Of a DNA stretch of 64,000 nt, positions 3,529 to 29,024 are shown piece by piece (the stretch's first letter is position 1; the number at the start of each line of letters is the position of its first letter). Both the position numbers and the translations under genes were made by a program. Under the pieces are notes generated by a model. The model had not been told where the DNA came from. It made no database searches and was given only the letters and a program-made list of their open reading frames with translations. The stretch is from NCBI RefSeq assembly GCF_055900595.2, contig NZ_CM148325.1; one strand, 5' to 3'.

Positions 3529-3616
3529 GGATACCGTTACCATTTCCAGAGCAATAGTCACCAGCGTAATTTTCTGGCACAGTTCAGGGAACTGAAATTT
3601 TGGCTAAGGAGTAGCC

Positions 3617-4840: not shown

Positions 4841-5248
4841 TTACCCCGCCCGATGATGACAGCAGCCAGAGAGATTTTCGATAATCGGGCAGTCGGCGCT
4901 GTCATCGCCAGGGCAGGCATTCGCCAGCGCCAGTAGCTGGTCGCGCATGGATTGCAGCTCCTCAATGTGTCGTTCGATCTCCGCCACTTTCTCCAGGGTG
5001 CGCCGTTTTACATCGGCGCTGTGACGCTGCGGGTCGTTAAACAGATTCACCAGTTCGCCGCTCTCTTCCAGGTTAAAGCCCACCTGGCGCGCCTGGCGCA
5101 GTAAGGTCAGTTCGTTGAGATGCTGCTGCGTGTAGGTTCGATAACCATTTTCGCTGCGCATCGGCGGCGTCACCAGCCCCTTTTCTTCATAGAAGCGAAT
5201 GGCTTTGCTGGTCAGGCCGGTAATTTTTGCTACATCGCTAATGTTCAT
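4841..5248 (-). CDS. cueR: MerR-family copper-responsive regulator CueR
   Basis: 135-aa translation [26 protein letters not shown]...[24 protein letters not shown] recognised as E. coli CueR. Confidence 0.95.
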
Positions 5249-6420
5249 CGTTCGCGCAACGCCTCCTGTGCTTTGTTAAAGGGTTTCAACAGATAATCCA
5301 GCACGCTTTTTTTGCCAGTGCGGATATCGACCGTCGCCACCATACCGGGAAATATCGGAAACTGCTGTTTGCTTTTATTTTCCAGATGGTTGCTGAAAGT
5401 GCGAATGTACACCCGATAGTAATAAACATCGCGCCGCACTTCATCCTGTACAGTGTCCGGTGAAATCACCGCCACTTCCCCTGGCAGGCCGCCGTAGATG
5501 GAGTAATCGTAAGCGGTTATTTTCACCAGCGATTTTTGCCCCGGATGGATAAACGCCACATCGCGGGGGGAGATTTTTGCCTCGATCAACAGTTGCTCAT
5601 CCAGCGGCACGATAGTCATGAGTTTACCACCGGGGGCGATGACGCCGCCAACCGTGGTGACGTCAATGTCCTGAACAATGCCTCGCACCGGCGCAGTAAA
5701 GTTGAGCCGGGTGAGAGAATCTTCCCGCCCGCGGATCACCGAACGCTGGGTTTCCACTTCCGCATTGGCTTTCGCTAACTCTTCGCGCGCTTGTACGTAG
5801 TATTGCGTACGCACGTCGCTAAGTTTGTTTTCCAGTTCATTGGCCTGGCGTTGCAGGCGCAGCACTTCAACGCTGCTCGCCGCCCCCTGTTTCACCAGCG
5901 GCTGGGTCATCGCCAGTTCGCGGTTGACCAGGCTAATCCCCTGCGTCAGCCCGGTGGTGGCTTTGTTCAACCCGTCGCGGCGAGTGTTATATAACGCCGT
6001 TTCCGACTCGATAAGTTCGGGGAATTTATTCAGTTCGTCAGGGAAGACCAGCGGTTTATTGCTCACTTCTGCCCGCAGCCGCGCCGAGGTTGCCAGCGCC
6101 GCATACAGCCGCGACATCGCTTCCTGGACGTCGGATTCCGTTTTGGTGCGGTTAAGCTGCGCCAGCGGCTGCCCCTGTTCGACAATATCGCCAACCTTCA
6201 CGTCGAGATGATACAAAATCCCGCCTTCCAGCGACTGCACCACCTGTTCGCGTCCAGAAGGTTCTACCGTGCCGCTGCCGGTGGTGACTTCATCAAGCTG
6301 GAAGTACCACGCCCAGCCGAGAAAACAGAGCAGCATCACAGCGGTAACGCGTACCGCCAGCGCCGAACGCGGCAAGCGGGGTTCAGTCAGGCCACGGTTG
6401 TATTGCAGTTGTCCGTTCAT
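5245..6420 (-). CDS. type I secretion membrane fusion protein (HlyD/LapC family periplasmic adaptor)
   Basis: 391 aa; N-terminal TM anchor, coiled-coil and beta-barrel/lipoyl motifs typical of HlyD family; overlaps ABC gene start and cueR start. Confidence 0.9.
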
Positions 6421-8579
6421 GCAGCAGACCCCTTATTCTTCTCCTGCAACACCACCCGTCGCGCCGTGGGTTCGCTCTGTTCACGCAAAATGGCCTCTTT
6501 CGCGCCATCCATCACAATCCGCCCCTGATCCATCACGATAATGCGGTCCACCAGTTGCAGCATCGCCGTGCGGTGAGTGGCGATGACCAGCGTGCGATGC
6601 CCAATCCACTGTTTTAGTTGTTCAATTAAATACGCTTCCGCCATTTCATCCAGCGAGGCGCTGGGTTCATCGAGCAGGACGATGTTGGGTTGAGAGATGA
6701 GGAGCCGCGCCAGCAGCAGCGTTTGCCGCTGGCCGCCAGAAAGACCAAATCCCCCTTCCTGAATCATGTAGTTAAGGCCGTTTTTCTGCTTCTGCACAAA
6801 CGGCAGCGCCCCGCTGAGGGTTAATGCGCGTTCGATATCTTCATCGCTGGCCTCCGGCATCCCCATGGTGAGGTTTTCCCGCAGCGAACCGAAGAACAGT
6901 CGCCCGGTCTGGCTGAGCAGCCCCATGTCGCGACGCAGATCTGCCGGATCAAGCTGCCCGATGCTGATGTTATCCAGCAGCACCTGCCCCTGCTGGGCGA
7001 TACGCATTCCGGCGAGCATTTGCAGTAGCGTTGATTTACCCGCGCCGTTGCGCCCGAGAATGGCGATTTTCTCACCGGCCTGAATGTTGAGTTTGCCAAT
7101 CGCTACATCGGCAATTTTCTCTTCTTCGTCGTAATAAAACACCGCGTTGCTAAACTGATAATTACCGTGCAGTACCGCTTTATGCACCAGTTTGCCGTGC
7201 TCCGGCTGATCCACCGGGCGCTTCATCAGTTCATCAAGCCCGTTACGCGCCACTTTCGCCTGCTGCCAGCGCGAAAGCACGCCGGATATCTGCGACAGCG
7301 GCGCGATGGTGCGCGAAGCCAGAATCGTCGTTCCGACCAGCGCGCCGGTGGTCATGTCGCCGCTCATCACCATAAAGCAGCCCACCAACAGCACCACCAC
7401 ATAGACGATGGATTGCACTTCCTGCGTCCAGGTGAGCAGCAGCCCGGTGAGAAAACGTTGCTTCATGCTGATAGATGACGCCACGTCGTTGGTGTGATTC
7501 CACTGATTCTGGAAACGCTGTTCAGCACGCAGCAGTTTAATGTCTTCAATCGACTGCACGGCCTCGACAAGCGTAGCGTTGCGCACTGCCGATTCGCGCA
7601 TCCCTTCGTTCGCCAGCCGCGCCAGCGGGCGTTGTACCAGCAGGCCGGGGATCACCAGCAACGGCAGCGCCAGCAAAACAACCAGCACCAGCCAGCCGCC
7701 GATCATCCACAGAATAAAAACAAACAGCAGGAAGAATGGCAGATCCGCTACCGCGCCAATGGTGGTGGAGGTGATCAGCTCCCGCACCGATTCCAGTTCG
7801 CGGATCTGTGAGATAAACGATCCGGTGGATTTCGATCGCACGTTATTTTTCAGCCGTAATGCGTGACCAAACACGCGATCCGAAATACGCAGATCCGCCC
7901 GTTTGCCGATCACATCGGAAAGGTGTGTGCGCACCATGCGCATACAGAACTCAAACAGGATCGCCATCATCACCCCGGCGAACAGCACCCATAGCGTCGG
8001 GTAGGACTGCGCCGGAACAACGCGGTCGTAAACCTGCATCGAGAAAATCATCGCCGCCAGCGCCAGCACGTTCGCCACCAGCGAGGCCAGCATAATATCG
8101 CCGTAGCGCCGCCAGTCTTTTAGCGAAAGATTCCAGAACCAGTTAGCCTGATACGGGCGAATGTAGTCATCCACCCGCGCATCGGGAATGGCGCTGAGCG
8201 GTCGTAGCAGCGCCAGTTCAACGATTTTGTCTTCTATATCCGTGACGTTTAGCGTAGTTTCCAGCCCTTCGTCACCGCTGAACTGAACGCTGATATTGTC
8301 GTGATTGTCGCGGCGGGTGATAACGCCAATCTGTTGATTATCAAACACCGCGATCAGCGGCAGCCGCCAGGGGTTAAGCGAATCAGCGGAAAATTCTACC
8401 AGCCGTAGCCCCATTCCCAGTTGCCGCGCCATGTCGGTGAGCAACTCTTCCCGCTTGCTGTCGCGCTCCCAGTTGACGGTCGCGCGCACATTCTCCTGGG
8501 AAAAATCGAGGCGGTAATAGCGCGCCACGGCGATCATCGCCTCCAGCCAGGCTTCCACGGACTGGGCATTTTTTTTCAT
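6417..8579 (-). CDS. type I secretion ABC transporter with N-terminal C39-like domain (HlyB/LapB type)
   Basis: 720 aa; Walker A GRNGAGKST, ABC signature LSGGQRQ, Walker B LLDEPSASLD, six-TM core, N-terminal peptidase-like domain. Confidence 0.9.
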   Translation of the reverse strand: MKKNAQSVEAWLEAMIAVARYYRLDFSQENVRATVNWERDSKREELLTDMARQLGMGLRLVEFSADSLNPWRLPLIAVFDNQQIGVITRRDNHDNISVQFSGDEGLETTLNVTDIEDKIVELALLRPLSAIPDARVDDYIRPYQANWFWNLSLKDWRRYGDIMLASLVANVLALAAMIFSMQVYDRVVPAQSYPTLWVLFAGVMMAILFEFCMRMVRTHLSDVIGKRADLRISDRVFGHALRLKNNVRSKSTGSFISQIRELESVRELITSTTIGAVADLPFFLLFVFILWMIGGWLVLVVLLALPLLVIPGLLVQRPLARLANEGMRESAVRNATLVEAVQSIEDIKLLRAEQRFQNQWNHTNDVASSISMKQRFLTGLLLTWTQEVQSIVYVVVLLVGCFMVMSGDMTTGALVGTTILASRTIAPLSQISGVLSRWQQAKVARNGLDELMKRPVDQPEHGKLVHKAVLHGNYQFSNAVFYYDEEEKIADVAIGKLNIQAGEKIAILGRNGAGKSTLLQMLAGMRIAQQGQVLLDNISIGQLDPADLRRDMGLLSQTGRLFFGSLRENLTMGMPEASDEDIERALTLSGALPFVQKQKNGLNYMIQEGGFGLSGGQRQTLLLARLLISQPNIVLLDEPSASLDEMAEAYLIEQLKQWIGHRTLVIATHRTAMLQLVDRIIVMDQGRIVMDGAKEAILREQSEPTARRVVLQEKNKGSAA

Positions 8580-8582
8580 TCT

Positions 8583-11500
8583 CTACACCACCATCAACTG
8601 ATGATTCGCCAGTAAAGTGGCGAGGTCGGTGTGCACGCCCGTCAGCGTGACCATGTTAGTTGTCGCAAAGCCGCCGCCCGTGCCGTCACGGTCGATCTGC
8701 ACGATGGTGTCGCTGCCGCTCTGGGTAACTTTGACAAAATCACCGATGTTTCCGGCCTGGGCATCCAGCGTTGCCACACCGTTGACATAGCTGGCTTTGC
8801 CGTTTCCGGTGTAGCCGCTGCCCTGTAACAGTTCACGAATATCAATGCGATCGGTGTCGGCGGTGCCTTCCCAGGTGCCTACCGTAAAGCCATTCACCAC
8901 GTCCGAACCGTTGCCCCCGGCGGCGTCACTGGCGTTAAGCAGTTTATATAGCAAGGTGTCGTGACCGCCGTTACCGATGTTGAGCGTGTCGTTGCCGCCG
9001 CGCCCTTCCAGTTGGTTATCGCCGCTGCTGCCGGTCAGAGTGTCATTAAAATTCGAGCCGGAAATCCCTTCGATATTGGTAAATGTCGAGGTATTAAAAC
9101 CGGTGGCCTGTGCGGTGGTAACGCTTAAGTTAGCGGTGACGCCCACCGTTGAGAGACGGAAATCGACCACGTCCATGCCGCCGTTCGCCAGCCAGGTTCC
9201 TGTGCCGGAGCTGTACACCCAGCCGCCGGAACCGTCGTAGGTGTCGGTGCCTGCGGTGGCGAAGAAGGTGTCGTTATAGCCAGTGCCGACAAACTTGCCG
9301 TTGTTGCTCGCCGTACCCGCTTCAGCACTGAGATCGTAAGCGTGAGTAGCATCGGTGGCCTGTAAGCCACCCCAGCTGGTATTCACCGTCTGGTCGATAT
9401 TGCTGGCGGTGGTGCCAGTGGATTTGATCAGCACCGCGTTGTAGGTTTCTCCAGCGTTAAGTCCGTAGAAGTTGACCAGCGCCGAGGTGTCGTTAACGCC
9501 CATCCCCGACTGCGGGTTGATGATTTGTGTCGCCACCAGCACGCCCGCCGAGTTGTACAGCTTCACGGTATTGCCGTAATAGACATTAATACCGTTGGGA
9601 TCGGTGATACGCAGGTGCAACGAGGTGCCGTAGCTCACCGTGTTAGTGTTACGGATGAGGAACACGCTGCCCGACTGTTTGGTTACCAGCACATCCACCG
9701 CGCCGTCCCAGTCGTAGTCCATTGCCGCCACGCCGCTGGTGGTGCCGCTCTGGCTGCCACCGAGTGCCGATTGTGTCCAGTTACTGGCGTTGCTGACGTT
9801 AGTATAAAGATACGACTGTCCGGTCTGGGCGATACGGGCGATGTCCATTAACCCGTCATGATCCCAGTCGACGGCCAGGCTGAATTGACTGGCGTAGGTG
9901 GTTGCCGTCGCGCCGACCGCCACCGGGCTACCCAGCACGCCGTTGGTGTTGAATAACAGCGAGCCGTAGTTAGCTCTTCCCTGGCTGGCGGGCAGGAAGA
10001 GGTCCATATCGCCGTCACCATCGAAATCGGCCCATGTCATGGAAACGGATGTCGAGTTTCCCCCCGAGCCAGGACTACTGAGGAAAGTATTGACGGTGTT
10101 TTGTCCCCAGACGAAGGTGCCATTGCCCTGGCTTATCAACGATGAGAGGGTGAAGTTGTTGTTCAGGTTGAAAGTGTGCTGAACCAGATCAATTCTGCCG
10201 TCATTATTAAGATCGACACCGGAACCTTCGTTGAGTGACAAATAACCTGTCACCGCCCCACCGACCGTAGCACTCCCCCCGTTATTAGCGGTGGTGGAGT
10301 TGCCTGTCAGGGTGCCGGCGTTGTTCCACAGGAAAGTGTTGGAGTCCGGCCCCCCGGCGTCGCCAATCCAGAAATCAAGATAACCGTCGCCCTCTTTATC
10401 GAACGCCACAATCGAGCCATACCACGTCAGGGTGCCAACGTTCACCTGGATGGCGCTGGAAAACGTACCGTCGCCGTTATTAGTAAAGCCGTTGATATAC
10501 CCCGTGCCGTAGTCATCACGGGTAATAAACAGATCGCCCGTACCGTTACGGTTGTAATCGGCGATGGAGCTGGTGGCATAGTTGTTGCCACTTTGCACCA
10601 GCGTCAGGGCGGTTTTCGACCAGGTGAGCGGATCGGTGGATTGCATAATTTGCTGGTTGGCCAGCACCGTCCACATCCCGTGGTTGTCGAGTCCATAAGT
10701 CAGCCCCCAGGCGGTGGATTTGCTGGTGGTGGTCCAGGTCGGTGTGTAATCTATCGCCGCGTTAACCGTTACCGTGCCAGTGCTGACGTTGGCGGTGTTG
10801 CCATTGCCCGCCGAGCTTTTCACCTGCGCGGTGACGTTATAGGCGGTCGCAGACGCCGCCAGCGCGTCGGTATCCGGCAGTTGTACATACCAGGTGTTGT
10901 GCGCCGGATCGACGACCACCGCACCGCCTGGCTGCGAAGTGTAAGTTTTGCCGTTGATCACCACTTCAACATACTGTCCGCTGGCGAGTGCCGCGGTGAG
11001 TACGCCGCTGATAATCGGCGTGGTATCGCGTGTGGTTTGATTGGTGATTTGCGCAAGCGTGGTCGGAATAGAGGTATCGACCGTCAGGACAAAATCACTG
11101 GAGGAGGTGATATTCCCGGCCAGATCCACCACTCGCGCACTGTAGGTGTACGCGCCGCTGACCAGACCACTGTCGCTGTAAGTCCAGTTCAGCGCGCCGA
11201 CCATCGTTACCGCACCTAACAGCAGACCGTTACGGTAGAGGTAAACGACTTCACCGCTGGCAAGCGGCGCAGAGAGCACGCCGTTGAGCAACGGCGTGGT
11301 GTCGTCGGTGGCCTGCGAATTGCTAAACGTCCCCTGCCGCTGCCCGACATCATCGGTATACGACACAATGGTCGGCGTGGCGGTGGGGTTAATCGTATCG
11401 ACCACCACCGTTTTCGATACCACCGGGCCTGTATTTCCCGCCAGATCCAGCACCCGTACCTGATAAACGTAGCTGCCGTCGGTCAGCGTGCGGCTGTCAG

Positions 11501-14500
11501 TGTAAGTCCACTGCGTACCGTTGGTGGTGAGCGTGGTCCAGGTCGCGCCGCCATCGAGGCTAATCTGCGCCACTTCGCCGCTGGCAAGCCCCGCCCCCAG
11601 CGAACCGGTCAGCGTGAGCGTGGTATCGCTGGTGATAAAGTCGGTGGCCGAACTCCCCGTATCGGTGCTGATGCTGGCGATGGTGAGCACCTGCGCCGGG
11701 TTAACGGTGTCAATCTGCGCCGACTGGCTGCCGGTTGCGCCAACGTTGCCCGCTAAATCAACCACCCGCACCTGCCAGGTGGTGGTGCCGTTGGTCAGCG
11801 TACGCCCGTCCACATATGTCCAGTTCAGACCGTCTGCGGCAACGGTCACGTTCACCCAGGTTGCGCCGTTGTCGGTACTGATTTGCGCGAACTCATTAGC
11901 GCCGAGCGCCGCGCCCAGCACGCCGCGCACGGTAAGCGTGGTGTCGCTGGTAATAAAATCGCTGCTGCTGGCTCCGGTGTCATCGCTGATACCGGTAATA
12001 GTGATGCTTTTCGCCGCTTCCGGGCTGATGGTGTCAACCACCACGTTTTGCGTCGCGGTCTGCCCGACATTCCCCGCCAGATCCACCACCCGCACCGTGT
12101 AATTCCATGTGCCGTCGGTGAGCGTGCGACCATCGGCATAGCTCCAGCTGGTGCCGATAACGGTTAAGGTGGCCCAGGTAACGCCACCATCAAGGCTGAT
12201 TTGCGCCCGTTCATCTGCCGCCAGCGCCGCGCCGAGCGTCCCGCGCACGGTCAACGTAGTGTCACGGGTCACAAAATCGCTGCTGCTTAACCCGGTGTCA
12301 TCGCTGATGCCCGCAATGACGATGGTTTTGCTCGCCAGCGGCGCGGTGGTATCCACGGTGACTATCTGGCTGGCGGTCGCGCCGATATTTCCGGCGGTGT
12401 CGATCACCCGTACCTGATAGTTGTAGTTACCGTCGGTCAGCGTGCGCCCGTCAAGATAAGTCCAGGTTAATCCATTTACCGCCAGATTCTGCCAGGTGGT
12501 GCCGCCATCGATACTGATTTGCGCGAACTCACCGGCAGAAAGTGCCGAGCCCAGCGTGCCGCTTACCGCAAGCGTCGTGTCGCTGGTGACAAAATCATTA
12601 GTAATCAGACCTGTATCGGTGGTGATCGCGCTAATGGCGATGGTTTTCACCGCGGGATCTGGCGCAGTAGTGTCGATCACCACATTCTGGCTATCAGTCG
12701 CCCCGACGTTGCCCGCCGCATCAATCACCCGCACCTGATAGAGATAGTTACCATCGGTCAGCGTGCGGCTGTCGTTATAGCGCCAGGTCGTGCCAGTAAC
12801 GGTAAGCGTGCTCCAGGTTACACCGCCGTCGATACTGATTTGCGCCGTCTCGTTACTGGCAAGCGCGGCGGTGAGTGAGCCGTTGACCACCACCGGGCTG
12901 ACGCTGGTGATAAAGTCGCTGGCGCTAAGGCCAGTGTCGGCTTGCAGGGAATCAATATTAATGCCCATCGCCGGGGCGCTGAGATCGACGGTAATGGTGT
13001 GATTGCTGCTACCGATGTTGCCAATGGCGTTGCTCACCGAAGCGTTAATCACATAGGCATTGCCGTCCGCCAGCGCGGTGACATCGGCGCTGCCGAGGGT
13101 GTAGCTCCAGCTACCACCGGTCTGCACCGTAGTGGTGTAGGTTTTACCGTTTAAGGTCAGAGTCAGCGTCTGCCCGACTGGGGCGGTGGTGGTGCCGCTG
13201 ATCACCAAAGACGCGCCGTGTTCCGCCGCGTTCACCACATCATCGCCCGCAAGGGTGTTAATGGTGACGGTGGGGACGTCGCCATTCAACGTCACGCCAC
13301 GGCTGGCGCTACCGGGGTTTCCGGCCTGATCGCTGACCGTCGCGCTGATGGTGTAGCTGCCGTCGCTTAATCCGGCAAACTGCTGCGCCGGAATAAACAC
13401 CGACCAGCTTCCGCCACTGCCGACCGTTGCGGTCCAGTTTTGTCCGTTAAAGGTGACGCTCACCGTCTGGCCCGCTTCGGCGGTGGTGGTGCCGCTGATG
13501 GTCTGCCCGGCAAGCTGCTCGGCGTTGTTGATAATATCGTCACCCGCCACCGTGGCGATGGTGACCGTTGGCGCAACGGTATCGACGGTCAGGGCGTGCG
13601 TGGTTTGACCGGGGTTACCGGCACGATCGTTCACGCTGGCGGTAATGGTCTGCGCACCCTGCCCGAGCGATGCCAGATCCGCCGCAGGCACGTTCAGCGC
13701 CCAAGTGCCATTGGCGGCAACCGTGGCGGTATAGGTTTTGCCGCCAAAGGTGACGGTGACCGTTTGCCCCACTTCCGCGCTGGTCGAGCCGTTAAGGGTT
13801 AACGGCTGCTGCTGTTCGGCGGCGTTGAGTCGATCGTCCGTCGAAACGGTGTTAATGCTGATAATCGGCGCGGTGAGATCCACCGCCACGCTGCGCGAGG
13901 CCGTGGCGCTGTTTCCGGCGCTGTCCTGCGCGGAGGCGCTAACCGTATAGCTGGTGCCATCCGCAAGCGCCGCAACGTCTGCCGCCGGCACGTTCACGCT
14001 CCAGCTCCCGTTGCTCTGAATGGTGGCGCTGTAGCCTTTGCCGTTAAGTAACACGGTCACCACCGTACCTGCGGCAAAGTTCGTTCCGGTGCCGCTCAGG
14101 GTCAGCGCACTGCCTGCTTCGGCGGCGTTAATCACGTCATCGCTGGCAACGGTGTTGATGCTGATTGCCACCGCCGTTAAATCGACGGTGAACGGATGGC
14201 TGACGCTGACCGGGTTTCCGGCGCTGCTCTGGCCTGTCACGTCAACGGTTAACGCCCCCGCAGGCCAGGCGCTGACGTTTGCCGCCGGAATGCCAACGCT
14301 CCAGCTTCCATCCGCCTGTACCGTGGTGGAATACGCCACACTGTTGATGGTAACCGTCAGCACAGCACCTGCATTCAGGCCGCTACTGCCGCCGGTGATC
14401 ACCAGCGCCTGACCATGCTCGATGCTGTTGACGATATCATCGCCCGCCACGGTATCCACCCGCAGCCCTGGCAGATTGGCATCAATGGTGATATCCCGCG

Positions 14501-17500
14501 TGCCGCTACCCGTATTGCCATTCGCGTTGGTAACCGAGGCGGTAATGGTCAAATCACCATTGCCCAACGCCTGGAGATCGGCTGCCGGAACGCTGACGCT
14601 CCAGCTTAAGTTGCCCTGTACCGTAGCGGTGTAAGTGTTACCGCCCAGCGTCACGGTAACTGTATCGCCAGCGGCGGCGCGGGTCACCCCCCCGCTGATG
14701 GTTTGATCGGCCCCGGCTTCGGCGGCGTTGATAATATCGTCGTCCGCCACGGTATTGATGGTGACGCCTGGCAGGCCGCTGTCGACCAGTAAATTCGCCT
14801 GGCTGCTGGCGGTGTTGCCTGCCGCACTGGTGGCGCTGGCGCTGACGGTATAGTTAGCCTGACCTAAGGCCGCCAGATCGCTCACCGGCACGGTTAAGGT
14901 CCAGTTGCCTGCTGCGTCGGTGGTAGCGCTGTAGTTATGACCGTTGAGCGTGACGGTAACCTGTGCGCCGGTCGCCAGCCCCGTACTGCTACCGCTGATG
15001 GTCAACGGCTGGCCTTTTTCATCGGCGTTCAGAACGTTATCGCTGCTGATGGCGTTAAAGGTAATGGTCGGCAGCCCGGTATTGACCGTCACCTGATGGC
15101 TGGCGTTGCCGCTGTTTCCGGCGGCGTCAGTGACGCTGGCGTTAATGGTCACCGTGCCGTTTGCCAGTGCCGAAACAACGCTTGCCGGGACGCCGACGCT
15201 CCAGTTGCCGCTGGCATCCAGCACCGTGGTGAAGGTATTTGTGCCGATAGTCACCGTCACGGTGTTACCGGTTGCCGCACCAGTGGCAGAGCCGCTGATA
15301 ATCTGCGCCTGGGCGTGTTCCGTCGCGTTGATCACATCATCACCCGCGACAGTGTTGATGGTGACGACCGGAACGGAAGTATCCACCGTCAGGTTGTGGT
15401 TAACCGAGGTCGGGTTTCCGGCCTTGTCGCTCACCGCCGCGCTGACGGTGTAGTTGCTGGCGGTCAGAGCGCTTAAGTCGGCTGGCGGTACGCTGATACT
15501 CCAGCTGCCGTCCGTTTGTACCGTGCCAGTATAGTTTGCGCCATTGAGCGTGACGGTCACCGTCTGCCCGGCTTCCGCCGTGCTGCTGCCGGTGATGGTC
15601 AGCGCCGCACCCGCTTCGGCGGCGTTAAGAATATCGTCGCCCGCAATGGTGTTAATGGTCACCGTTGGCGCGGTGGCATCGACGCTGTAAGCGTGGGTAG
15701 TGGTGGCACTGTTGCCGTTAACGTTGCTGACGCTGGCCTGCGCGCTGGCATCACCATCACGCAGGGCTGCCATATCCGCCGCCGGAACCGTGGTGCTCCA
15801 GGAACCATTCGCCGCGACACTTGCAGTATAGGTTTTACCGCCAAAGGTCACGGTGACCGTTTGCCCGGCCTCCACGCCAGAGGTGCTGCCGGAGAGCGTT
15901 AATGCCGCGCCTTTTTCAGCGGCGTTAATCACATCATCGGTGGTAATGGCGTTGATGCTGACCGCCACCGCCGAGAGATCGACAGTCACTGGATGCGTAA
16001 CGCTGACCGAGTTTCCGGCGGTAGTGCTGCCGCTCGCCGTAATCGTCACCGCCCCCGCAGGCCAGGCGCTGACATCCACCGCCGGAACGCCGACGCTCCA
16101 GGTGCCATCCGCCAGCACTGCCGCAACATAGGTTTGCCCGTTAATGGTCAGCGTGACATTGCTACCCACCGCCAGCCCAGAGCTGCTGCCGGTAATCACC
16201 AGCGCCTGACCGTGCTCGATAATGTTGACCACATCATCGCCCGCCACGGTATCGACCCGCAGACCGGGGAGATTCGCGTCTATGGTGATTTCGCGCGTGC
16301 CGTTACCGGTATTGCCTACGCTGTTCGTTACCGAAGCCGAAATGCTCAGCTCTCCGTTGCCCAACGCCTGTAACGCCGAAGCCGGAACATCGACACTCCA
16401 GCTTAAGTCTGCCTGTACCGTAGCGGTGTAAGTCGCCCCACCGAGCGTCACGGTCACCGTGTCGCCCGCCGCGGCCCTCGTGACCTGCCCGCTGATAGTT
16501 TGAGTTGCCCCCGCTTCGGCGGCGTTAATAATATCGTCCGTTGCCACAACGTTAATGGTGACGCCCGGTAGCGCGGTATTAACCTGCACGTTATGGCTGG
16601 CGGAACCGCTATTGCCATCAACATCGGTTGCGGCGGCAGTCACCGTATAAGTCGCTTCACCGAGCGTACCAACCGCAGACGCCGGAACAGTCACGCTCCA
16701 GTTCCCGGAAGCATCGGCAGTGGTGGTGTAATTTTGCCCGTTGAGCGTAACAGTTACCTGCGTGCCCGCAGGCTGGTTGCTGGTGCCGGAAATCGACAGA
16801 TCCGCGCCTTTCTCCGTGGCGTTGATGATGTCATCGACGGCGATGGTGTTAATGGCGAGTATCGGTGCACCGAGCGCCACGCTGACAGTGTGCGAGGCCG
16901 TGCCGCTGTTGCCTGCGGAGTCGGTAACCGTGGCGGTAATGGTCACATCGCCCTGGGCCAGCGCGGAAATCACGCTGGCAGGCACGCCGATGCTCCAGTT
17001 GCCGTTGGCGTCCAGCACGGTGGTGTAGGTGGTCGTGCCAATCGTCACGGAAACCGTGTTACCCGTCGTCGCGCCCGTTGCCGAGCCGCTGATAATCTGC
17101 GCCTGAGCATGTTCCGTGGCGTTAATGATGTCATCGCCTGCTACCGTGTTAATGGTGACGACCGGAGCGGCAAGATCCACCGTCAGGTTATGCGTCGCCG
17201 AGGTTGGGTTGCCCGCTTTGTCGCTGACCGCCGCGCTCACCGTATAGGGGCTGGCGGTAAGGTCGGCTAAATCGCCAGTTGGTACGCTGACGCTCCAGCT
17301 CCCGTCTGCCTGCACGTTGCCGCTGTAATTGATGCCGTTTAGCGTCACGGTCACTGTCTGCCCGGCTTCTGCGGTGCTGGTGCCGCTGATGGTCAGCGCC
17401 GATCCCGCTTCGGCGGCATTAAGAATATCGTCGCTGGCGATGGTGTTGATAGTAACGGAGGGCGCGGTGGCATCGACGCTATAAACATGCGTTGCCTGGG

Positions 17501-20500
17501 CGTTGTTACCCGCGACGTTGCTGACGCTGGCCTGGATGTTTGCTGCGCCATCCGGCAAGGTTGCGAGATCGGCTGCTGGGATCGTCAGCCCCCAGGTATT
17601 ATCCGCGGCAACCGTGGTGGTGTAGCTTTTGCCACCGAAAATAACGGTAATGGTCTGCCCCGCTTCCACGCCGGAGGTGGTGCCAGAAAGCTGCAAATCA
17701 GTGCCTTTTTCGGCGGCGTTTATCACATCGTCAGTGGAGAGTGTATTGATGGTAATCGCCACGGCAGCGAGATTGACCGTGACCGGATGGCTAATGCTGG
17801 TTGTGGTTCCGGCGGTATTAGTGCCAGAGACGGCAATATTGACCGTCCCCGTAGGCCAGTTAGCCACGTCCGCTGCCGGAACGCCGACGCTCCAGGTGCC
17901 ATCGGCGAGTACCGTTGCGCCGTAGGTGACGCTATTGATAACCACCGTCAACGCCGCGCCCGCCGCCAGTCCGGTACTACTGCCGGTGACCACCAGTGCC
18001 TGAGTGTACTCAATGCTGTTAATCACATCATCGCCTGCCACGGTATCAACCCGCAGACCTGGCAAGTTGGCATCTATCACGATGTCGTGCGTTGCGGTGC
18101 CGGTATTATTTGCGGAATTGGTCACCGAGGCGCTGATGGTCAGTTCACTGTTACCCAGCGCCTGCAAATCTGCCGCAGGCACGCTGACGCTCCAGCTTAA
18201 ATCTGGCTGCACGGTGGCAATGTATTGATTACCGCCGAGCGTGACAGTGACCGAATCTCCTGCTGCTGCCGTCCCCGTAACCTGTCCGCTGAGGGTCTGG
18301 TTAACGGCGATTTCAGCGGCGTTGATAATGTCATCGCCCGCCACGGTATTAATAATCACCCCAGGCAGGAGCGATTCGACATTCACCGTATGGGTGGTGC
18401 TGCCGTTGTTGCCCGCGCTGTCGGTGGCACTGGCGCTAATCTGGTATACCGCCTCGCCCAGTGCGCCGACCGCCGAAGCAGGCACGGTAACGCTCCAGTT
18501 GCCGGAGCCGTCGGTGGTGGCGCTGTACGCCAGGCCGTTCAACATCACGGTGACCGTAGTGCCTGCCGCCAGGCCGCTGGAGACGCCGCTGATGATCAGA
18601 TCCTGGGTTTTCTCGGTATTGTTAATGATGTCATCGCCGGAGACGGTGTTGATGGTCAGCGTCGGGCCGCTGAGATCAACGGTCACATCGTGAGTCGTGC
18701 TGTCGCTGTTGCCCGCGCGATCGCTCAGGCTGGCGGTGATGGTCTGGCTACCGGTTGCCAGTGCCGTGACATCCGCCGCCGGAATACCCACACTCCAGTT
18801 ACCGGAGGCGTCCAGCGTTGTGGTGTAGTTTTTACCGTTCAGATTAACCGTGACCACATCGCCCGCCGCCGCGCCCGTACTGGTGCCGCTCACCACCAGC
18901 GCCTGACCATGTTCGATGGCGTTGATAATGTCATCGCCCGCGACGGTATTAATGGTGAGATCCGGCGCGGTAACGTCCACCGCCAGTGCATGATCCGCGC
19001 TTGCCGGGTTGCCCGCTTTGTCGCTCACCGTGGCGGTCACGGTATAACTGCTGGCGGTTAATCCGCTTAAATCTGTCGCCGGAACGTTCACACTCCAGGT
19101 GCCATCGGCCTGGACGGTAGTCTGGTACGTGTTGTTATTGAGCGTGACAGTCAGCGTCTGCCCGGCCTGCGCCGTGGTGGTGCCGCTGATAGTTATCCCC
19201 GCGCCCGCTTCACTCACGTTGAGAATATCGTCGCTGGCGATGGTGTTGATGGTCACAAGCGGCGCGGTGGCATCGACGCTGTACGCGCGATCGGCCTGGG
19301 CGCTGTTGCCGTTAATGTTGCTGACACTCGCCTGCACGTTGCCCGCGCCGTCCGGCAACGCAGCGAGATCGGCAGGCGGCACATTCACCGTCCAGCTACC
19401 GTTGGCTTCCACAGTGGTGGTGTAATTTTTGCCGCCAAAGGTGACGGTCACCGTCTGCCCGGCTTCTACACCGCTGGTACTGCCGCTCACCACCAGCGTT
19501 TCGCCTTTTTCGACGGCATTGATCACATCATCGCCGGAGAGAGTGTTAATGGTTATGGCGACCGCCGCCAGATCGACGGTAACCGGATGGGTAATGGTGG
19601 AGGTTGTTCCGGCGCTGTTGGTGCCGCTTACCGTGATATCCACCGTACCCGCAGGCCAGTTGCTGACGTCTGCCGCCGGAACGCCGAGGTTCCATGTACC
19701 GTCAGCTAACACCGTGGCAGCGTAAGTGACGTTGTTAATCACGACCGTTAATGCCGTTCCTGCCGTCAGCCCGGTGCTGCTACCTGTTATCACCAGCGCC
19801 TGATTGTGCTCAATGCTGTTAATAACATCATCGCCCGCTACGGTATCGACCCGCAAACCAGGCAGATTGGCATCGATCGTAATATCGCGCGAGCCGCTGC
19901 CGCTGTTGCCCACGACGTTGGTGACCGAGGCGTTAACTGTCAGGTCGCCGTTACCAAGCGCCTGAATATCCGCCGCCGGAACGCTGACACTCCAGCTTAA
20001 ATTAGCCTGCACCGTAGCGGTGTAGGTGTTGCCGCCCAGCGTGACGGTGACCGTATCGCCCGCCGCCGCGCCCGTCACCTGCCCGCTGATGGTTTGCACA
20101 CTGCCCGCTTCGGCGGCATTAATAATGTCATCGGTTGCCACTGCGTTAATGGTAACGCCAGGTAAGGCGCTGTTGACCAGCACATTATGGCTGACGGAAT
20201 TACTGTTGCCTGCCGTGTCGGTAACGCTCGCCGTTACCGTGTAGTTGGCTTCACCCAACGCGCTAGCTGCCGAGGCTGGCACCGTGGCGCTCCAGTTGCC
20301 ACTGCTATCGGTGGTAGCGGTGTAATTTTGTCCGTTCAGCGTCACTGTAATGGTGGTGCCTGCGGGCTGATTACTGGTGCCAGTAATTTGCAGATCCGCG
20401 CCTTTTTCTGTGGCGTTAATCACATCATCGGTGGCGATAGTATTGATACCTATCGTTGGCGAGGTGAGATTCACGGTGACCGTGCGGCTGGCATCATCGC

Positions 20501-23500
20501 TGTTGCCTGCCGCATCGGTAATGGCCGCAGTGATGGTTTGCGGGCCGCTGCCCAGCGCAGTGACGTCTGCTGCCGGAACGCCGACGCTCCAGTTGCCGGA
20601 GGCGTCCAGCGTGGTGGTATAAGTTTTACTGTTTAACGTGATGGTGATGACATCGCCCGCTTCGCCGCCAGTGCTGGAACCGGAGATCACCAGCGCCTGT
20701 CCGTGTTCGGCGGCGTTAATGATGTCATCGCCGGAGACGGTGTTAATGGTTAAAACTGGCACGGTGAGATCCACCGCCAGGCCGTGAGTGGCGGTCGCCG
20801 GGTTACCCGCTTTGTCGCTTACCGAGGCGCTGACCGTGTACGGGCTGGCGGTCAGATTGCTGAGATCCGCCGTCGGCACGCTGACGCTCCAGCTACCGCC
20901 CGCCTGAACGGTGCCGATGTAAGCCACACCATTAAGCGTGACGGTTACCGTTTGCCCCGCTTCGGCGGTGCTGGTGCCGCTGATGGTTAACGGATTGCCC
21001 GCCTCAGCGGCGTTAAGAATATCGTCTGTGGCAATAGTGTTAATGGCAAGCGTCGGTGCCGTGGCGTCGACGCTGTAGGCGTGGGTTGCCGAAGCCGTGT
21101 TGCCGTTAATATTGCTGACACTGGCCTGTACCGTGGCGTCGCCGTCACGTAACGCGCTGAGATCGGCGGTGGGTAGAGTAGTTGTCCAGCTACCATCGCC
21201 CGCTACGGTAGCAATATAGGTTTTGCCGCCAAAGGTGACGGTGACGGTTTGCCCCGCTTCCACGCCGGAAGTGCTGCCGGAAAGGGTTAACTCTGCCCCT
21301 TTTTCAGCGGCATTAATCACATCGTCGCCGGAAACGGTGTTAATGGAGATCGCCACCGCCGCCAGATCGACGGTGACCGGATGGGTGATGGTGGAGGTTG
21401 TTCCGGCAGTGTTAGTGCCGCTTACCGTGATATCCACCGTCCCCGCAGGCCAGTTGCCCACGTCTGCCGCCGGAACGCCAACGCTCCATGTGCCATCGGC
21501 TAATACTGTCGCAGCGTAAGTGACCGTGTTAATCACCACTGTCAGCGCCGCGCCCGCCGCCAGCCCGCTGCTGCTACCGGTTATCACCAGTGCCTGAGCG
21601 TGCTCGATGCTGTTGACCACATCATCGCCCGCCACGGTATCGACGCGCAGACCCGGCAGGTTGGCGTCTATCACAATATCGCGCGAACCGCTGCCAGTAT
21701 TACCCACGCCGTTGGTTACCGAGGCATTAACTGTCAGTTCGCCATTACCGATAGCCTGAATATCCGCCGCCGGAACGTCCACGCTCCAGCTAAAATTGCC
21801 CTGCACGGTAGCGGTGTAGGTTTTCCCGCCAATCGCCACGGTAACCGTATCGCCCGCCGCCGCACCCGTCACCTGGCCGCTGATGGTCTGCGCCACGCCC
21901 GATTCCGCCGCGTTAATAATATCGTCGGTCGCCACCGGATTAATGGTGACACCCGGCAGCGCGGTATTCACCTGCACGTTATGGCTGGCGGAATTGCTGT
22001 TGCCCGCGCTGTCGGTGACGTTCGCCGTCACCGTGTAACTGGCGTCGCCCAGCGCACCGACGGCAGAGGCTGGCACCGTGGTGCTCCAGTTGCCTGCGGC
22101 GTCCGTCGTGGCGGAGTAATTTTGCCCGTTAAGCGTCACCGTAATTGTGGTGCCTGTTGGCTGATTACTGGTGCCGGAAATTTGCAGATCCGCGCCTTTT
22201 TCCGTGGCATTAATCACGTCATCGCTGGCAATGGGGTTGATGCCAATGGTCGGCGCGGTAAGGTTAACGGTGACCGTGTGCGTCTCGTTGTCGCTGTTGC
22301 CAGCCACATCGGTAACGGTCGCCGTCACGGTTTGCGGGCCGCTGCCCAGCGCAGAGACATCCGCAGCCGGAACGCCGACGCTCCAGTTTCCGGAGGCGTC
22401 CAGCGTGGTAGTGTAGGTTTTATTGTTTAGCGTGACGCTGACGATATCGCCCGCCTCCCCGCCAGTGCTGGAACCGGAAATCACCAGCGCCTGCCCGTGT
22501 TCGGCGGCGTTAATAATATCATCGCCCGCAATGGTGTTAATGGTCAGTACCGGAACGGTGAGATCCACCGCCAGATTATGCGTGGTGCTCGCCGGGTTGC
22601 CCGCTTTGTCATTGACCGTCGCCGTCAGGGTATGGCTGCCATCGGTCAATGCCTCAAGATCTGCCGCCGGAATAGTAATACTCCAGCTGCCGTCCGCCTG
22701 CACTGTTGCCTGATAGGTCTGCACGGTCGGGCTGTTAAGCGTTACCGTAACAATCTGCCCCGCTTCAGCGGTGGTGCTGCCGCTCACCGTCACGCCCGCA
22801 TCGGCTTCGCTGGCGTTGACGATATTGTCGCTGGCGACGGTATTGATAATGATGGTTGGCGCGCTGCTATCGACGCTGTAGTTATGCACCGCCGAGGCGC
22901 TATTGCCATTGATATTGCTGACGCTGGCCTGCGCGGAGGCGCTGCCCTCAGGTAATGCTGCCAGATCGGCGGCAGGAACGGTGGCAGTCCAGCTACCATC
23001 GCTCGCCACGCTGGCGGTGTAATTTTTCCCGCCAAAGTTGACGGTGACGGTTTGTCCTGGCTCTACATTAGTGGTGGTGCCGGAAAGAGTTAAATCAGCG
23101 CCTTTTTCTGCGGCGTTAATCACGTCGTCCGTGGCGATGGTGTTGATTGTGATCGCCGCCGGAGTGAGATCCACCGTTACCGGATGCGTAATGCTCACCG
23201 GATTTCCGGCGCTACTTTCCCCGGATACAGCAATAGACACTGTTCCCGCAGGCCAGGCGCTAACCTGCGCCGCCGTGACGCCCACGCTCCAGCTACCATC
23301 GACCTGCACCGCAGTGGTGTATTCCACATTATTAATCGTAACTGTAAGCGGGGTGCCTTCTGCCAGCCCCGAGCTGCTGCCGGTGACCACCAGCGCCTGC
23401 CCGTGTTCGATGATATTGACCACATCATCGCCCGCTACCGTATCGACCCGCAGACCGGGCAGATTGGCGTCGATGGTGATATCCCGCGTGCCGCTGCCGG

Positions 23501-26500
23501 TGTTGCCGTTTTGATTGGTGACCGAGGCGCTCACCGTTAAATCACCATTACCCAGCGCCTGAATATCCGCCGCCGGAACGCTCACGCTCCAGCTTAAACC
23601 GGCCTGCACGGTGGTGCTGTAAGTATTACCGCCCAGCGTAACGGTTACCGTGTCGCCAACGGCGGCTCCAGTCACCTGCCCGCTGATGGTTTGCGCAGCC
23701 CCCGCTTCGGCGGCGTTAATAATATCGTCGGTTGCCACCGGGTTAATAGTCACGCCGGGCAGCGCGCTGTCGACCAGCACGTTATGGCTGGCGGTGGCGC
23801 TGTTGCCGATATCGCTGGTCACCGCCGCCGTTACCGTATAGTTGGCCTGGCCCAGTGCGGTTACCGCCGATGCCGGAACGGTGACGCTCCAGTTACCGGA
23901 GGCGTCGGTCGTGGTGGTGTAATTTTGCCCGTTCAGCGTCACTGTGATGGCGGTATTAACAGGCTGATCGCTGGTGCCGGTAATTTGAACATCGGCCCCT
24001 TTTTCGCTGGCGTTAATCACATCATCGCCCGCAATGGTGTTAATGCCAATCACCGGCGCGGCGGTATCAACCGTGACGGTCAGTGACTGGCTACCCGTAT
24101 TTCCGGCGCGATCAGTCACTGAAACGTTGATCGGATAACTGCCGTCCACCAGTCCGCTGACAACGGAGGCCGGAACGCCCAGACTCCAGTTGCCGGAAGC
24201 ATCCACCACCGTGGTGTAATCCACATCATTCAGCGTAACGGTGACAATATCGCCCGCCTGCGCGCCGGTGACCGTGCCGCTGATGATTTGCGCCTGGGTA
24301 TGTTCCGGCGTGTTAATGACGTTATCGGTTGCCACCGGATTAATGGTCACCACCGGCGGCGTGGCATCGACCAGCGCCACCCGTGAGACGCTGGTCGGAT
24401 TACCCGCGACATCGTTCACGCTCGCGGTCACCGTGGCGTTGCCGTCAGCCAGTGCGCCAACGTTGGCGGCGGGAACGGTCACGCTCCAGGAGCCAACTGA
24501 CTGCACGACGCCCTGATAGGTCTGCCCATTAAGCGTGACGGTCACCGTCTGCCCCGGCTGAGCGTCGGTGGTGCCAGTGATTTGCAGATCCTGACCACTT
24601 TCGGCGGCGTTAATGATGTTATCAGCCGTCAGCGAGTCGATGCTTAAAGCCGGAGCCAGGCTGTCGACGGTAATGGTGCGGGAGGTGTCGCCTGTGTTAC
24701 CGCTGATATTAGTAACGGTCGCAGTGATTTCCGTCGCACCGTCTGCCTGGCTACTCACCGCGCTGGCGGGAACGGTCAGGCTCCAGCCGCCACCTGCCTG
24801 AACGGTAGTGGTAAAGGTCTGCCCGGCGAATTTCACTACTACGGTTTGCCCGGTTTCCACCAGCTGCGTGGTACCGGTCAGCGTCAATGGCGCGCCTTTT
24901 TCTGCGGCATTGATAATGTCATCGCCGGAGACGGTATTGATGGTAATAAGCACCGCGCCCGGATTAACCTCCACGTTGCGATCGATAGTAACCGGGTTCC
25001 CGGCGGGGTCCGTTGCGCTGGCATTAACCACTATCGTACCCGGCGTCAGTGCCTGTAGATCTGCCGCAGGCACGCCTACCTGCCAGTTGCCGTTGCTGTC
25101 GGTCACCCCCTGGTAGGTGTTGCCGCCGAGCAAAACAGTGACCACTCTTCCGGCGGACAAATTAGTACTGCTACCGGTGATAATCAGGTTTTGCTGCTGC
25201 TCAACGGCATTGATCACATCATCGCCCGCGATGGTGTCAATGCGCAGCCCCGGCAGCCCGGCGCTGATGGTGATATCAAGCGCACTGCTACCCGTATTGC
25301 CATGTACGGTAGTAACCGAAGCATTAATGGTTAACGCACCATCGCCCAGCGCCTGTAAATCTGCCGCCGGAACGTTCACGCTCCAGGTGAGATTGCTGCC
25401 CACCGTCGCCGTGTAAGTATTGCCGCCCAGTTCAATAGTGACCGTATCGCCCTGCGCGGCGCCCACGACGACGCCACTCAGGGTTTGATCTGCTCCCGCT
25501 TCGGCGTTGTTGACAATGTTGTCGCCCGCAAAGGTGTTGATGATCACCTGCGGCAGCACCGTATCGACCAGCAAATTGCTCTGCGCGGTGCCAGTGTTGC
25601 CGGTCACATCGGTGGCGCTGGCAGTGACGGTGTAATTGGTGTTCGCAAGATTAACAACATCACTCACCGGAACGCTCAGCGACCAGACGCCGCCGCTGAC
25701 CTGAGCGCTATACGTGACATTATTCAACGTCACGCTAACTGTACCGCCATCGGGCAAATTGCTGGTGCCGCTTAACGTTAGCGGCTGCTGAGACTCCAAC
25801 GCATTCAGTACGTTATCTCCGCTGATAGCATCTATCGCGACTTGCGGCGCGACGCCCGCCAGGGTGATGTTATGAGTCGCTGTACCGGTATTTCCGGCGG
25901 CATCGGTCACCGTGACGATAATATCGTTAGGGCCACGCGCTAGAGTGCGAGTTACCGCCGGATCAAGCGCCACATTCCAGCTACCGTCTGCCTGCACCAC
26001 GCCGGACAGAACTGTGGCGCCTAACTTGACGGTGACCGTGTCGCCAGGGGAAGCCCCACTGACCCGCCCGGAAATAATCTGCGCCACAATCTGTTCGGCG
26101 GTATTAAGAATATCGTCACCCGCAACGGTGTTAACGCTGACCACTGGCGCACCGGTGTCTACTGTGAAATTTACGCTGTTGCTGGTGGTGTTTCCTGCCC
26201 GGTCGCTGACGCTGGCATTTATGGCGTAGTCGCCATCTGCCAGCGCCTGCACTTCTGCGGCAGGCAGCGTCACTTGCCAGGTTCCGTCACTACCGACAGT
26301 TGCTGTGTGGCTTTTCCCGTTAACGGTCAGTGTTACGGTTTGCCCGGCTTCTGCGTTCGAAGTGCCGCTCACTACCAGCGAGGCATTATGTTCTGAGGCG
26401 CTGACAATGTTGTCCTGAGCGATGGTGTTGATTGCAAGTGTTGGCGGCTGGGTATCGACCGTTAGCAGCTGCGCTCCGGTGACCGTATTGCCCGTGGCAT

Positions 26501-27560: not shown

Positions 27561-27668
27561 AATGGCATTCCTGATAAATGGCGCATATCCTTAGCGAGTC
27601 CATTTATCTAAATAAGACAAAGGTAATCACTTAACAACGATGCATACCTGATATTAATAATGGCAGGA

Positions 27669-29024
27669 TTATTTTAAGTCGGGTAAGTCGTTGTATAAGC
27701 CCTGTTTAATTCCCGCTAATGGAATAAGGTTATTCACCGCAGCGGCATAATTTACGGCGGCGACCCAGCCATCATAATTGGCATTTATTTCAGCCGATTG
27801 CGCCTGAAAAACATCTTGCTCGACGGTTAATAGATCATTCAGGCTTCGGTTACCCAATTTATATTCATTTTGATAAACATCCCGCGTTCTGTGCGCACTT
27901 TCGGATTGCGCTAAACCGGCCTCTTCACGTCCCCGTGCCCCAGTCCAGTTGGCATACGCCACCGACGCCCGTTGCATAACATCTAATTTCGCCTGCTCAA
28001 CCTGCGAGGCAGAGATTTTTTGTTGCCCTTCGGCCTGTTGCACCTGGGCTGAAACCGCGCCGCCCTGATACAACGGCGCGTTGACGTTCAGTTGTAACTG
28101 GTCATCCCAGTACGAGCGGTCGCTGGTCTGGTAGCGCGTTTTGCCGCCCTGAATACTGAGCGTCGGCCAGTATTGCGATTTGGTTTTTTCCACACCGTAC
28201 TGAGCAGACTGACGTAAGTTTTCTGCCGCCAGAACCAGCGGTATGGACTGGTAATCAATATTTTTTAGCGACACTGGCTGCTCGGCTAATTCAGCAGGTG
28301 GCGCGGCTATCCTCTCCGGCTGTACACCAGTGAGCACCGCCAGTTGCGCTTTGGCGCTTGCCATTTGCGCCTGGTATTGCTCCAGCGTCGAGCGCATTGC
28401 CGCTATACGCGTCTGTGCCTGTAATTCATCGGATGATGAGTTAAGCCCGGCGTTGGCGCGCAGTGCCGCCATGTTGTAGACATTTTCCAGAGAGTGAATA
28501 TTACGCTGCGCAGCGTCGCACAACGCCTGATATCGGCTCACTTCCATATAGGTCGTCGCCGTTTTTTCGGCTACGTCAGTTAAGGTTGCCATCAGTTTAA
28601 AGCGGTAGCTGTCACGAGCGGCGGTTTGTAGTTTGATATCGTTATCTGTTTTACCGAAGTCATACACCAGCTGCGTCAGGGTTATGCCATAAGAGACGTT
28701 GTTATCCAGCCTGCCGCTGGAGTCCGTTTGCCGGGACGGCCCCGCGTTGCCGGTTAATCCAACGTGTGGATACCAGGCACTTTTGGCTTCATCGATTTGC
28801 GCTTCGCCAATACCTATCTGCGCCGCCTGTTGAGTGACGTCGGGATTTCGCGCAAAGGCGCGTAATATACTTTCCTGTAAAGATAATCGGGCAACTGGCG
28901 TTACCGCTGGGGCGTTCGCCCATTGTGGCAGCGGTGCAGCAATTGTAGCTTCTCCCATCACCATAAAACTTATTAAAAAAATAAGTCCATTATTTTTACG
29001 GTTTTTAAACTGGAATCGCGCCAT
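27669..29024 (-). CDS. TolC-family outer membrane channel of the type I secretion system
   Basis: 451 aa with signal peptide and two repeated coiled-coil/beta halves typical of outer membrane efflux proteins; first gene of the OMP-adhesin-ABC-MFP cluster. Confidence 0.85.
   Translation of the reverse strand: MARFQFKNRKNNGLIFLISFMVMGEATIAAPLPQWANAPAVTPVARLSLQESILRAFARNPDVTQQAAQIGIGEAQIDEAKSAWYPHVGLTGNAGPSRQTDSSGRLDNNVSYGITLTQLVYDFGKTDNDIKLQTAARDSYRFKLMATLTDVAEKTATTYMEVSRYQALCDAAQRNIHSLENVYNMAALRANAGLNSSSDELQAQTRIAAMRSTLEQYQAQMASAKAQLAVLTGVQPERIAAPPAELAEQPVSLKNIDYQSIPLVLAAENLRQSAQYGVEKTKSQYWPTLSIQGGKTRYQTSDRSYWDDQLQLNVNAPLYQGGAVSAQVQQAEGQQKISASQVEQAKLDVMQRASVAYANWTGARGREEAGLAQSESAHRTRDVYQNEYKLGNRSLNDLLTVEQDVFQAQSAEINANYDGWVAAVNYAAAVNNLIPLAGIKQGLYNDLPDLK

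Follow-up and report, generated by a model that had tools for sequence, protein, structure and literature searches.

The cueR start codon overlaps the stop codon of the O-island 28 membrane fusion protein gene: a likely insertion scar with a putative cueR promoter inside the island gene

The stretch of DNA analysed here (the window, 64,000 nucleotides from contig NZ_CM148325.1 of assembly GCF_055900595.2) is from Escherichia coli: its cueR region is matched by 5,424 of 5,426 complete genomes. At the center of interest is the gene of the copper regulator CueR. Its product scores 308.6 bits against the NF007590 equivalog profile (cut-off 244) and 207.5 bits against TIGR02044 (cut-off 147.4), is 100% identical to the K-12 protein WP_001026747.1, and presents both metal-binding cysteines (C112 and C120). 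The gene upstream on the same strand encodes a HlyD-family T1SS adaptor (the membrane fusion protein, MFP), with 327.7 bits against TIGR01843 (cut-off 208.65). The match reaches profile position 422 of 422, and the C-terminus ...QEALRER aligns with ...TESLHER, the final HlyD residue in 8dck_C; the MFP thus stops precisely at the HlyD terminus. Strain EDL933 has the identical protein (WP_001014327.1), while the DNA of the gene is 96.0% identical. Seven alleles of the MFP gene differ at 113 sites, 100 of them at third codon positions, which argues for strong purifying selection on this gene. The order OMP-adhesin-ABC-MFP-cueR, given in an earlier note on this DNA, is confirmed by the open reading frames and the profile matches (Table 1).

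The site, the gene order, the identity of the MFP and a box for the regulator RstA identify the locus as O-island 28 (OI-28) of E. coli O157:H7. In EHEC O157:H7 this island comprises tolC28-rtxA28-rtxB28-hlyB28-hlyD28 (Niu et al. 2025, PMC12758282) and is described as an O-island that K-12 lacks; RstA and Ca2+ activate it by way of a control region preceding tolC28, and the response to RstA is common to all five genes (PMC12758282). The published RstA box, TAATTCAAATTACC, occupies positions -294 to -280 of tolC28 (PMC12758282), and the box of the window stands at that distance from the OMP start (about -294). The genome closest to the window is Z0117EC0005, with 99.9% identity over the MFP-cueR region; its adhesin gene spans 21.7 kb and is annotated by PGAP as frameshifted with an internal stop. 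The length found there suggests repeat-number variation or assembly differences.

Table 1. Features of the cueR locus. Coordinates are those of the window, except for the MG1655 start sites (U00096.2, plus strand); distances are from the cueR ATG.
Feature	Coordinates	Strand	Detail	Basis
cueR, Cu(I)-responsive MerR-family regulator	4841..5248	-	135 aa	NF007590 equivalog, TIGR02044
ATGA overlap	5245..5248	-	cueR ATG 5248-5246, MFP TGA 5247-5245	Sequence, ORF list
hlyD28-type membrane fusion protein gene	5245..6420	-	391 aa	TIGR01843
MFP 3' remnant kept in K-12-type genomes	5249..5344	-	96 nt (97 with the A shared with ATG); right deletion end 5344/5345	Alignment to K-12
Shine-Dalgarno-like AGGAGG for cueR	5262..5267	-	13 nt before ATG, in MFP codons Gln-Glu-Ala	Sequence
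Putative promoter inside MFP coding sequence	5408..5444	-	-35-like ATGAAG 5444-5439, 17-nt spacer, -10 TACTAT 5421-5416 (Tyr-Tyr), start site A5408	EDL933 start site, alignment
Segment missing from K-12-type genomes	5345..29332	-	23,988 nt	Alignment to K-12
LssB-type ABC gene	6417-8579	-		ORF list, profile search
Ig-repeat adhesin gene	8583-27560	-	6325 aa	ORF list, profile search
TolC-like OMP gene	27669-29024	-		ORF list, profile search
RstA box TAATTCAAATTTCC	29305..29318	-	294-281 nt upstream of OMP start, T1SS operon control region	1 mismatch to published box
ybaT intrinsic terminator	29328..29350	-	GCGCAGUAC-UUUCU-GUACUGCGC then CUUUGUCUUU	Fold, terminator scan match
MG1655 start site	513102	+	-115, RRS 3.7	PMC4782308
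MG1655 start site	513131	+	-86, RRS 49.2	PMC4782308
MG1655 start site	513178	+	-39, RRS 100.3	PMC4782308
MG1655 start site	513196	+	-21, RRS 2.0	PMC4782308

On the minus strand the MFP gene closes with ...GAG GCG TTG CGC GAA CGA TGA, and cueR opens in the +1 register with ATG AAC ATT AGC. The stop and the start share an ATGA with no intergenic space between the two genes, as the earlier note had read from the sequence, and the coordinates of both open reading frames bear this out. RefSeq annotates the same 4-nt overlap in related genomes, EDL933 included. No terminator separates the two genes, so that any transcript extending to the hlyD28 end necessarily continues into cueR. The overlap is real and largely ordinary. 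The 4-nt ATGA is the commonest overlap class in bacteria, and the window holds two more such stop/start overlaps (ABC/MFP at 6417-6420 and qmcA/ybbJ at 554-557); the pattern taken alone carries little information. What sets this overlap apart is that its partners are a core regulator and a gene of an island: the ATGA at 5245-5248 is the junction between island DNA and core DNA.

Comparison with other enterobacteria provides insights on how this junction arose. We took cueR loci from 80 species-level genomes and classified their upstream neighbours; 75 of these loci lie outside Escherichia. In 42 of the 75 the CueR operator (CCTTCC...GGnAGG) ends 12-14 nt before the cueR start, and a copA-cueR divergon has been described previously for Salmonella, Klebsiella, Enterobacter and some Citrobacter (Permina et al. 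2006, PMC1526738). The ybaT gene or the MFP gene stands upstream of cueR only in the Escherichia loci. All 75 loci outside the genus have NTGA at the cueR start, which indicates that the TGA used by the MFP gene is native cueR sequence, namely its second to fourth bases. On the copA side, the homology of K-12 to other enterobacteria stops within the copA-glsA spacer right after ...GGAAGGTCAAG (GGTCAAG); on the cueR side of the island-bearing strains, MFP coding sequence runs right up to the cueR ATG. The glsA-ybaT-T1SS block of Escherichia thus appears to fill a gap of about 8 nt between the copA operator region and the cueR ATG, and the ATGA overlap looks like the right-hand junction, or scar, of an old insertion. 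The block (glsA-ybaT together with the OI-28 T1SS/adhesin operon) would have come between the cueR start codon and the CueR operator of the divergent copA promoter, replacing the native Shine-Dalgarno sequence of cueR and severing the gene from its native promoter; the HlyD-type gene would now stop on cueR's own (A)TGA. The full ABC-MFP-cueR arrangement with the overlap is carried by E. whittamii and Escherichia sp. E1V33, and in one Escherichia lineage the ABC gene has decayed and the MFP gene is frameshifted.

Several further features of the window surround this small piece of core DNA. The gene cueR amounts to 408 nt of core sequence, with accessory DNA adjoining both its start and its stop codon. 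At the stop codon the neighbour is a second accessory block (window 1003-4840), with 0 nt between the two stops (TTAATTA). Its reading frames are one of 407 aa at 3617-4840 on the plus strand with no NCBIfam or PHROG match, one of 140 aa at 2915-3337, and a YadA-like autotransporter at 1845-2861; K-12 homology picks up again at ybbJ (window 1003), and EDL933 carries a shorter version of the block. At the opposite end, the copA-glsA spacer ceases to match K-12 at 31799, a position within the copA promoter's CueR operator, of which the right half, CCAGCAAGGGGAAGGTCAAG, alone remains. Beside the broken operator (window 31780-40272) lie a phage integrase (31869-32912), a P2 gpA-like nickase (37783-40272) and Rfam matches to isrK (36866-36940) and C4 RNA (36976-37063). 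It appears that a P2-like prophage sits in the copA promoter; copA itself is outside the window, and the window holds no other prophage end, one which might rebuild the operator. The glsA (ybaS) gene at 30657-31589, minus strand, has an in-frame stop at codon 162, so that its reading frame ends at 31104 and the acid-resistance glutaminase is a pseudogene in this strain; ybaT is intact.

Most E. coli genomes have lost the island. The MFP 3' region is kept in 959 genomes, while in 4,465 of the 5,424 matching genomes the match starts at window position 5344, at a distance of 96 nt from the cueR ATG. A deletion of 23,988 bp is present in about 82% of complete E. coli genomes, among them K-12; it took with it the OMP, adhesin and ABC genes, most of the MFP gene, the promoter described below and the 3' arm of the ybaT terminator. 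In the window this terminator is intact (-16.6 kcal/mol, z = -4.8). In K-12 the 5' arm and a GTA are all that is left of it, with a fold no stronger than those of shuffled sequences, and the left deletion junction lies inside this terminator. What remains on the cueR side in K-12 aligns to the last 97 nt of hlyD28 with about 95% identity and a 1-nt deletion; in K-12 and BW25113, PGAP calls it a 98-nt frameshifted pseudogene, and its overlap with cueR is the same 4 nt. Relative to the island alleles, the deletion haplotype carries three linked changes in the remnant upstream of cueR. In E. albertii the ybaT hairpin is kept, about 55 nt of diverged MFP sequence are left, and the last 21 nt are unchanged; this truncation is independent of the K-12-type deletion.

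The earlier note had proposed a comparison with strains that lack the island, and this comparison shows that the K-12 "intergenic" region consists of the final 97 nt of the MFP gene, ATGA included, and that cueR works in strains that have neither the T1SS operon nor translation of the upstream frame. The opposite polarity, in which the island-less state is ancestral and the island was inserted later beside a pre-existing 97-nt spacer that merely resembles an MFP 3' end, would accord with the minority status of the island (959 of 5,426 genomes) and with its description as an O-island absent from K-12 (PMC12758282). We consider it extremely improbable and reject it. The spacer is a frameshifted near-copy of the hlyD28 terminus, a stretch that encodes the canonical HlyD C-terminus, the left junction cuts a terminator hairpin that is intact in the island strains, E. 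whittamii and another Escherichia species carry the full genes, and E. albertii is truncated differently.

Loss of the native promoter poses the question of what transcribes cueR in strains that keep the island. Published data on EDL933, acquired by Cappable-seq in eight conditions with triplicates (Zehentner et al. 2023, PMC10469882), are informative here. A gTSS for cueR (CDS 604847-605254) was called at 604687 in eight of eight conditions, reproducibly in triplicates (PMC10469882). The site lies 160 nt upstream of cueR, at position 1012 of the 1176-nt hlyD28, with RRS values of 4.2-9.0; its signal-to-noise ratio against the in-gene background is low in several conditions and passes the authors' threshold in at least one, though not in all (PMC10469882). 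The same work tabulates the distance of the cueR start site as 160 in EHEC versus 19 in MG1655, calls a tolC28 start site (579751) in six of eight conditions, and gives further sense start sites in hlyB28 and hlyD28 (PMC10469882). Its listing has no cueR start site at -39 or -86 for EDL933 (PMC10469882).

By alignment, 604687 of EDL933 falls on A5408 of the window; the start site was mapped in EDL933, and the sequence around it is identical in the window. Alignment columns 73-143 (-200 to -130) are invariant among the window, EDL933, E. whittamii, Escherichia sp. E1V33 and SCPM-O-B-8794. The hexamer TACTAT ends 8 nt before the mapped start, the -35 ATGAAG matches the consensus at 3 of 6 positions, and the two hexamers together match at 7 of 12. 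A rough PWM scan of the 550 nt preceding cueR puts this site in third place among the sigma-70-like candidates. A consensus sigma-70 scan under a 9-of-12 rule returned no cueR-strand promoter in window 4700-6600 or in the K-12 spacer; the mapped promoters were missed because their hexamers are too weak for that rule. Nucleotide conservation was set aside as promoter evidence, as the invariant run that covers the -10 and the start site (gene positions 985-1043) is exceeded in length by another run of the gene and is not significant. A nominal deficit of variable sites is confined to the last 72 nt of the MFP gene, with 1 versus about 7 expected (p of about 0.008). The 160-nt leader folds no better than shuffles (z = -0.45), and Rfam gave no match at the MFP-cueR locus. 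The alternative left open by the earlier note, a cueR promoter embedded in the 3' end of the MFP gene, is thus largely what the EDL933 start site reveals. We propose that in island-bearing strains, this one included, cueR is transcribed mainly from a weak constitutive sigma-70-type promoter in the last 200 nt of the MFP coding sequence, the word "mainly" being our reading of these data. Read-through from the T1SS operon controlled by RstA and Ca2+ could add to this transcription, given that no terminator intervenes, and would not be required for it.

The strains that lost the island have also lost this promoter. For MG1655, Cappable-seq gave four plus-strand start sites before cueR (Ettwiller et al. 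2016, PMC4782308; Table 1), with distances counted from the ATG at 513217 in U00096.2 (513993 minus 776). RegulonDB places the K-12 start site at -19, so the start-site catalogues disagree in detail. Seven nucleotides before the -86 site stands the hexamer TATTAT (NC_000913.3 513895-513900; hexamer to start site, 513895-513907), to which the ybaT terminator arm contributes GTA(C>T) and hlyD28 contributes TAT. It spans both sides of the deletion junction and was thus assembled by the 24-kb deletion; we infer that it is the working -10 of the -86 site. In a cryptic-clade Escherichia with the same deletion, the position of this hexamer is occupied by TACTAT. The K-12 -39 site falls within the hlyD28 remnant. 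The published start sites together with the sequence suggest that the -160 promoter was lost with the deletion and that its role passed to new proximal promoters: K-12-type cueR would be served by the sites at -86 and -39, and possibly by read-through from ybaT, the terminator of which is truncated. A sigma-54 motif, CTGGCACTGGTTTTGCT, has been reported inside K-12 ybaT, 679 nt upstream of cueR (PMC4591121); it has no match at two or fewer mismatches anywhere in the window, ybaT (29362-30654) included.

Translation of cueR presumably starts from the AGGAGG that lies 13 nt before the ATG, inside MFP codons. No Escherichia locus differs in the 21 nt immediately before the ATG (ACAGGAGGCGTTGCGCGAACG), not even the E. 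albertii remnant, which has otherwise diverged, and the retention of ACAGGAGGCGTTGCGCGAACG is consistent with a ribosome-binding role for this hexamer. Its spacing is longer than optimal, so de novo initiation may be inefficient and coupling to the upstream frame could matter on read-through mRNA. A small CGUU/AACG hairpin that would shorten the distance between the Shine-Dalgarno sequence and the AUG was considered and dropped, as nothing supports it. Obligatory translational coupling is impossible, because the -160 transcript has no MFP start and the K-12 remnant is frameshifted. The proposal of the earlier note that cueR is co-transcribed with, or translationally coupled to, the adhesin export genes therefore survives in part. 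The two genes have neither spacer nor terminator between them, and read-through is physically possible; the dependence is not obligatory, and a cueR start site exists inside hlyD28 of EDL933.

Two other accounts of cueR expression deserve consideration. One makes cueR the functionally last gene of the T1SS operon, with most of its mRNA made from the tolC28 promoter 24 kb upstream and translated by reinitiation at the UGA/AUG, so that CueR dosage follows RstA and Ca2+. It draws on the lack of any terminator or spacer after the MFP gene, on the joint response of the five OI-28 genes to RstA (PMC12758282), by which long transcripts reach hlyD28, on the poor placement of AGGAGG for de novo initiation, and on the fact that ATGA is typical of coupled pairs such as ABC/MFP of the same operon. 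Yet in EDL933 the cueR start site inside hlyD28 is called in all eight conditions and that of tolC28 in six, and further sense start sites lie within hlyB28 and hlyD28. EDL933 and the closest relative have a split or frameshifted adhesin gene, which would impose polarity, and cueR is nonetheless intact and conserved there; moreover, 82% of E. coli genomes run cueR with no operon at all and a frameshifted remnant. We judge this account unlikely.

The other account gives the overlap no present role and has cueR driven by start sites other than -160, the -160 signal being a processing or background product. There are candidates for such sites: internal sense start sites of hlyD28 at 604481/2 and 603894 in EDL933, and in the window a GATTAT (5298-5293) where the K-12 -39 site has its -10 region, which could mark a proximal site. 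The low signal-to-noise ratio of 604687 in several conditions points in the same direction. Cappable-seq, however, enriches triphosphate 5' ends, 604687 is reproducible in triplicates in every condition, EDL933 has no listed start site at -39 or -86, and TACTAT stands 8 nt before the mapped base; on balance this account is very unlikely. The reading that we prefer joins an insertion scar, an embedded promoter and, in K-12-type genomes, a deletion with new start sites. As an account of the whole locus it is probable, and it builds on the observed overlap, the gene identities, the anatomy of the deletion, the ancestral arrangement and the published start sites. An extension of it is that the insertion re-wired copper sensing: read-through from tolC28 under RstA and Ca2+, with reinitiation at the UGA/AUG, might raise CueR above the basal level given by the embedded promoter. 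We regard this as rather unlikely. If true, copper homeostasis would be tuned together with a gut adhesion programme, and the published delta-hlyD28 and delta-OI-28 mutants would also be cueR hypomorphs.

OI-28 has been studied as a colonisation factor with whole-gene and whole-island deletions (PMC12758282). In island-bearing strains, deletions of hlyD28 or of the island would take away the one cueR promoter that has been mapped, so that OI-28 mutants need to be checked for copper phenotypes and polar effects. In K-12 most of the 124-nt ybaT-cueR "intergenic region" is a defunct fragment of a secretion gene with the strongest mapped start sites inside it, and it offers a clean natural case of promoter replacement for a conserved regulator. 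Across the enterobacteria, cueR would have had three successive promoter arrangements (beside the copA operator, within a gene of the island, and at the scar of a deletion), and it lends itself to the study of how essential regulation withstands insertions at a start codon. The function of CueR itself is unaffected by these findings. The island, the annotation of the overlap and the start sites were already public, and no paper connecting them was found in the literature searched: no described cueR promoter or link between cueR and OI-28 turned up, cueR is absent from the text of Mendoza-Vargas 2009, and the OI-28 paper (PMC12758282) does not mention cueR, ybaT or the operon structure. The kind of locus is known, a stop/start overlap at an island/core junction with a promoter in the upstream gene; what is added here is the evolutionary reading and the warning about mutants.

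The nearest relative of the locus is O-island 28 as found in EDL933. Both have the chromosomal site between ybaT and cueR, the gene order, an identical MFP, the RstA box and the 4-nt overlap with cueR in common. They differ in the adhesin, which is one uninterrupted 6325-aa reading frame in the window and two (rtxA28 and rtxB28) in EDL933, in their DNA, which is about 96% identical, and in the block downstream of cueR, which is unlike that of EDL933. The copA-cueR divergon of Salmonella, Klebsiella, Enterobacter and some Citrobacter has the same cueR gene and the same copA operator sequence (ACCTTCCAGCAAGGGGAAGGTCAAG); there cueR begins 12-14 nt after the operator, whereas here the operator remnant and the cueR start lie about 26.5 kb apart, with inserted genes (31779-5249) between them.

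Other likenesses are of mechanism. The pairs trpE/trpD and trpB/trpA are overlapping and translationally coupled, and they resemble MFP/cueR in the same-strand stop/start overlap and in a Shine-Dalgarno sequence inside the upstream reading frame. In contrast to the trp pairs, the partners here are functionally unrelated and of different evolutionary origins, cueR has its own start site, coupling is dispensable for it (as the K-12 remnant indicates), and the Shine-Dalgarno spacing is 13 nt. Promoters within the coding sequence of an upstream gene are known for rpoS (inside nlpD) and for ftsZ (inside ftsA and ddlB). As in those systems, the cueR start site lies in the 3' part of a same-strand reading frame and gives a long leader, and expression would proceed without the upstream gene's own promoter; unlike in those systems, the host gene was acquired horizontally and the embedded promoter would replace an ancestral one displaced by insertion. 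Finally, hybrid promoters arise at rearrangement junctions, as in the -35/-10 hybrids generated by IS elements. The -10 of the K-12 -86 site, half ybaT-terminator arm and half hlyD28, would belong with these, with the difference that its hexamer was made by a deletion and not by the end of a mobile element, and that it is found in K-12-type genomes and not in this window.
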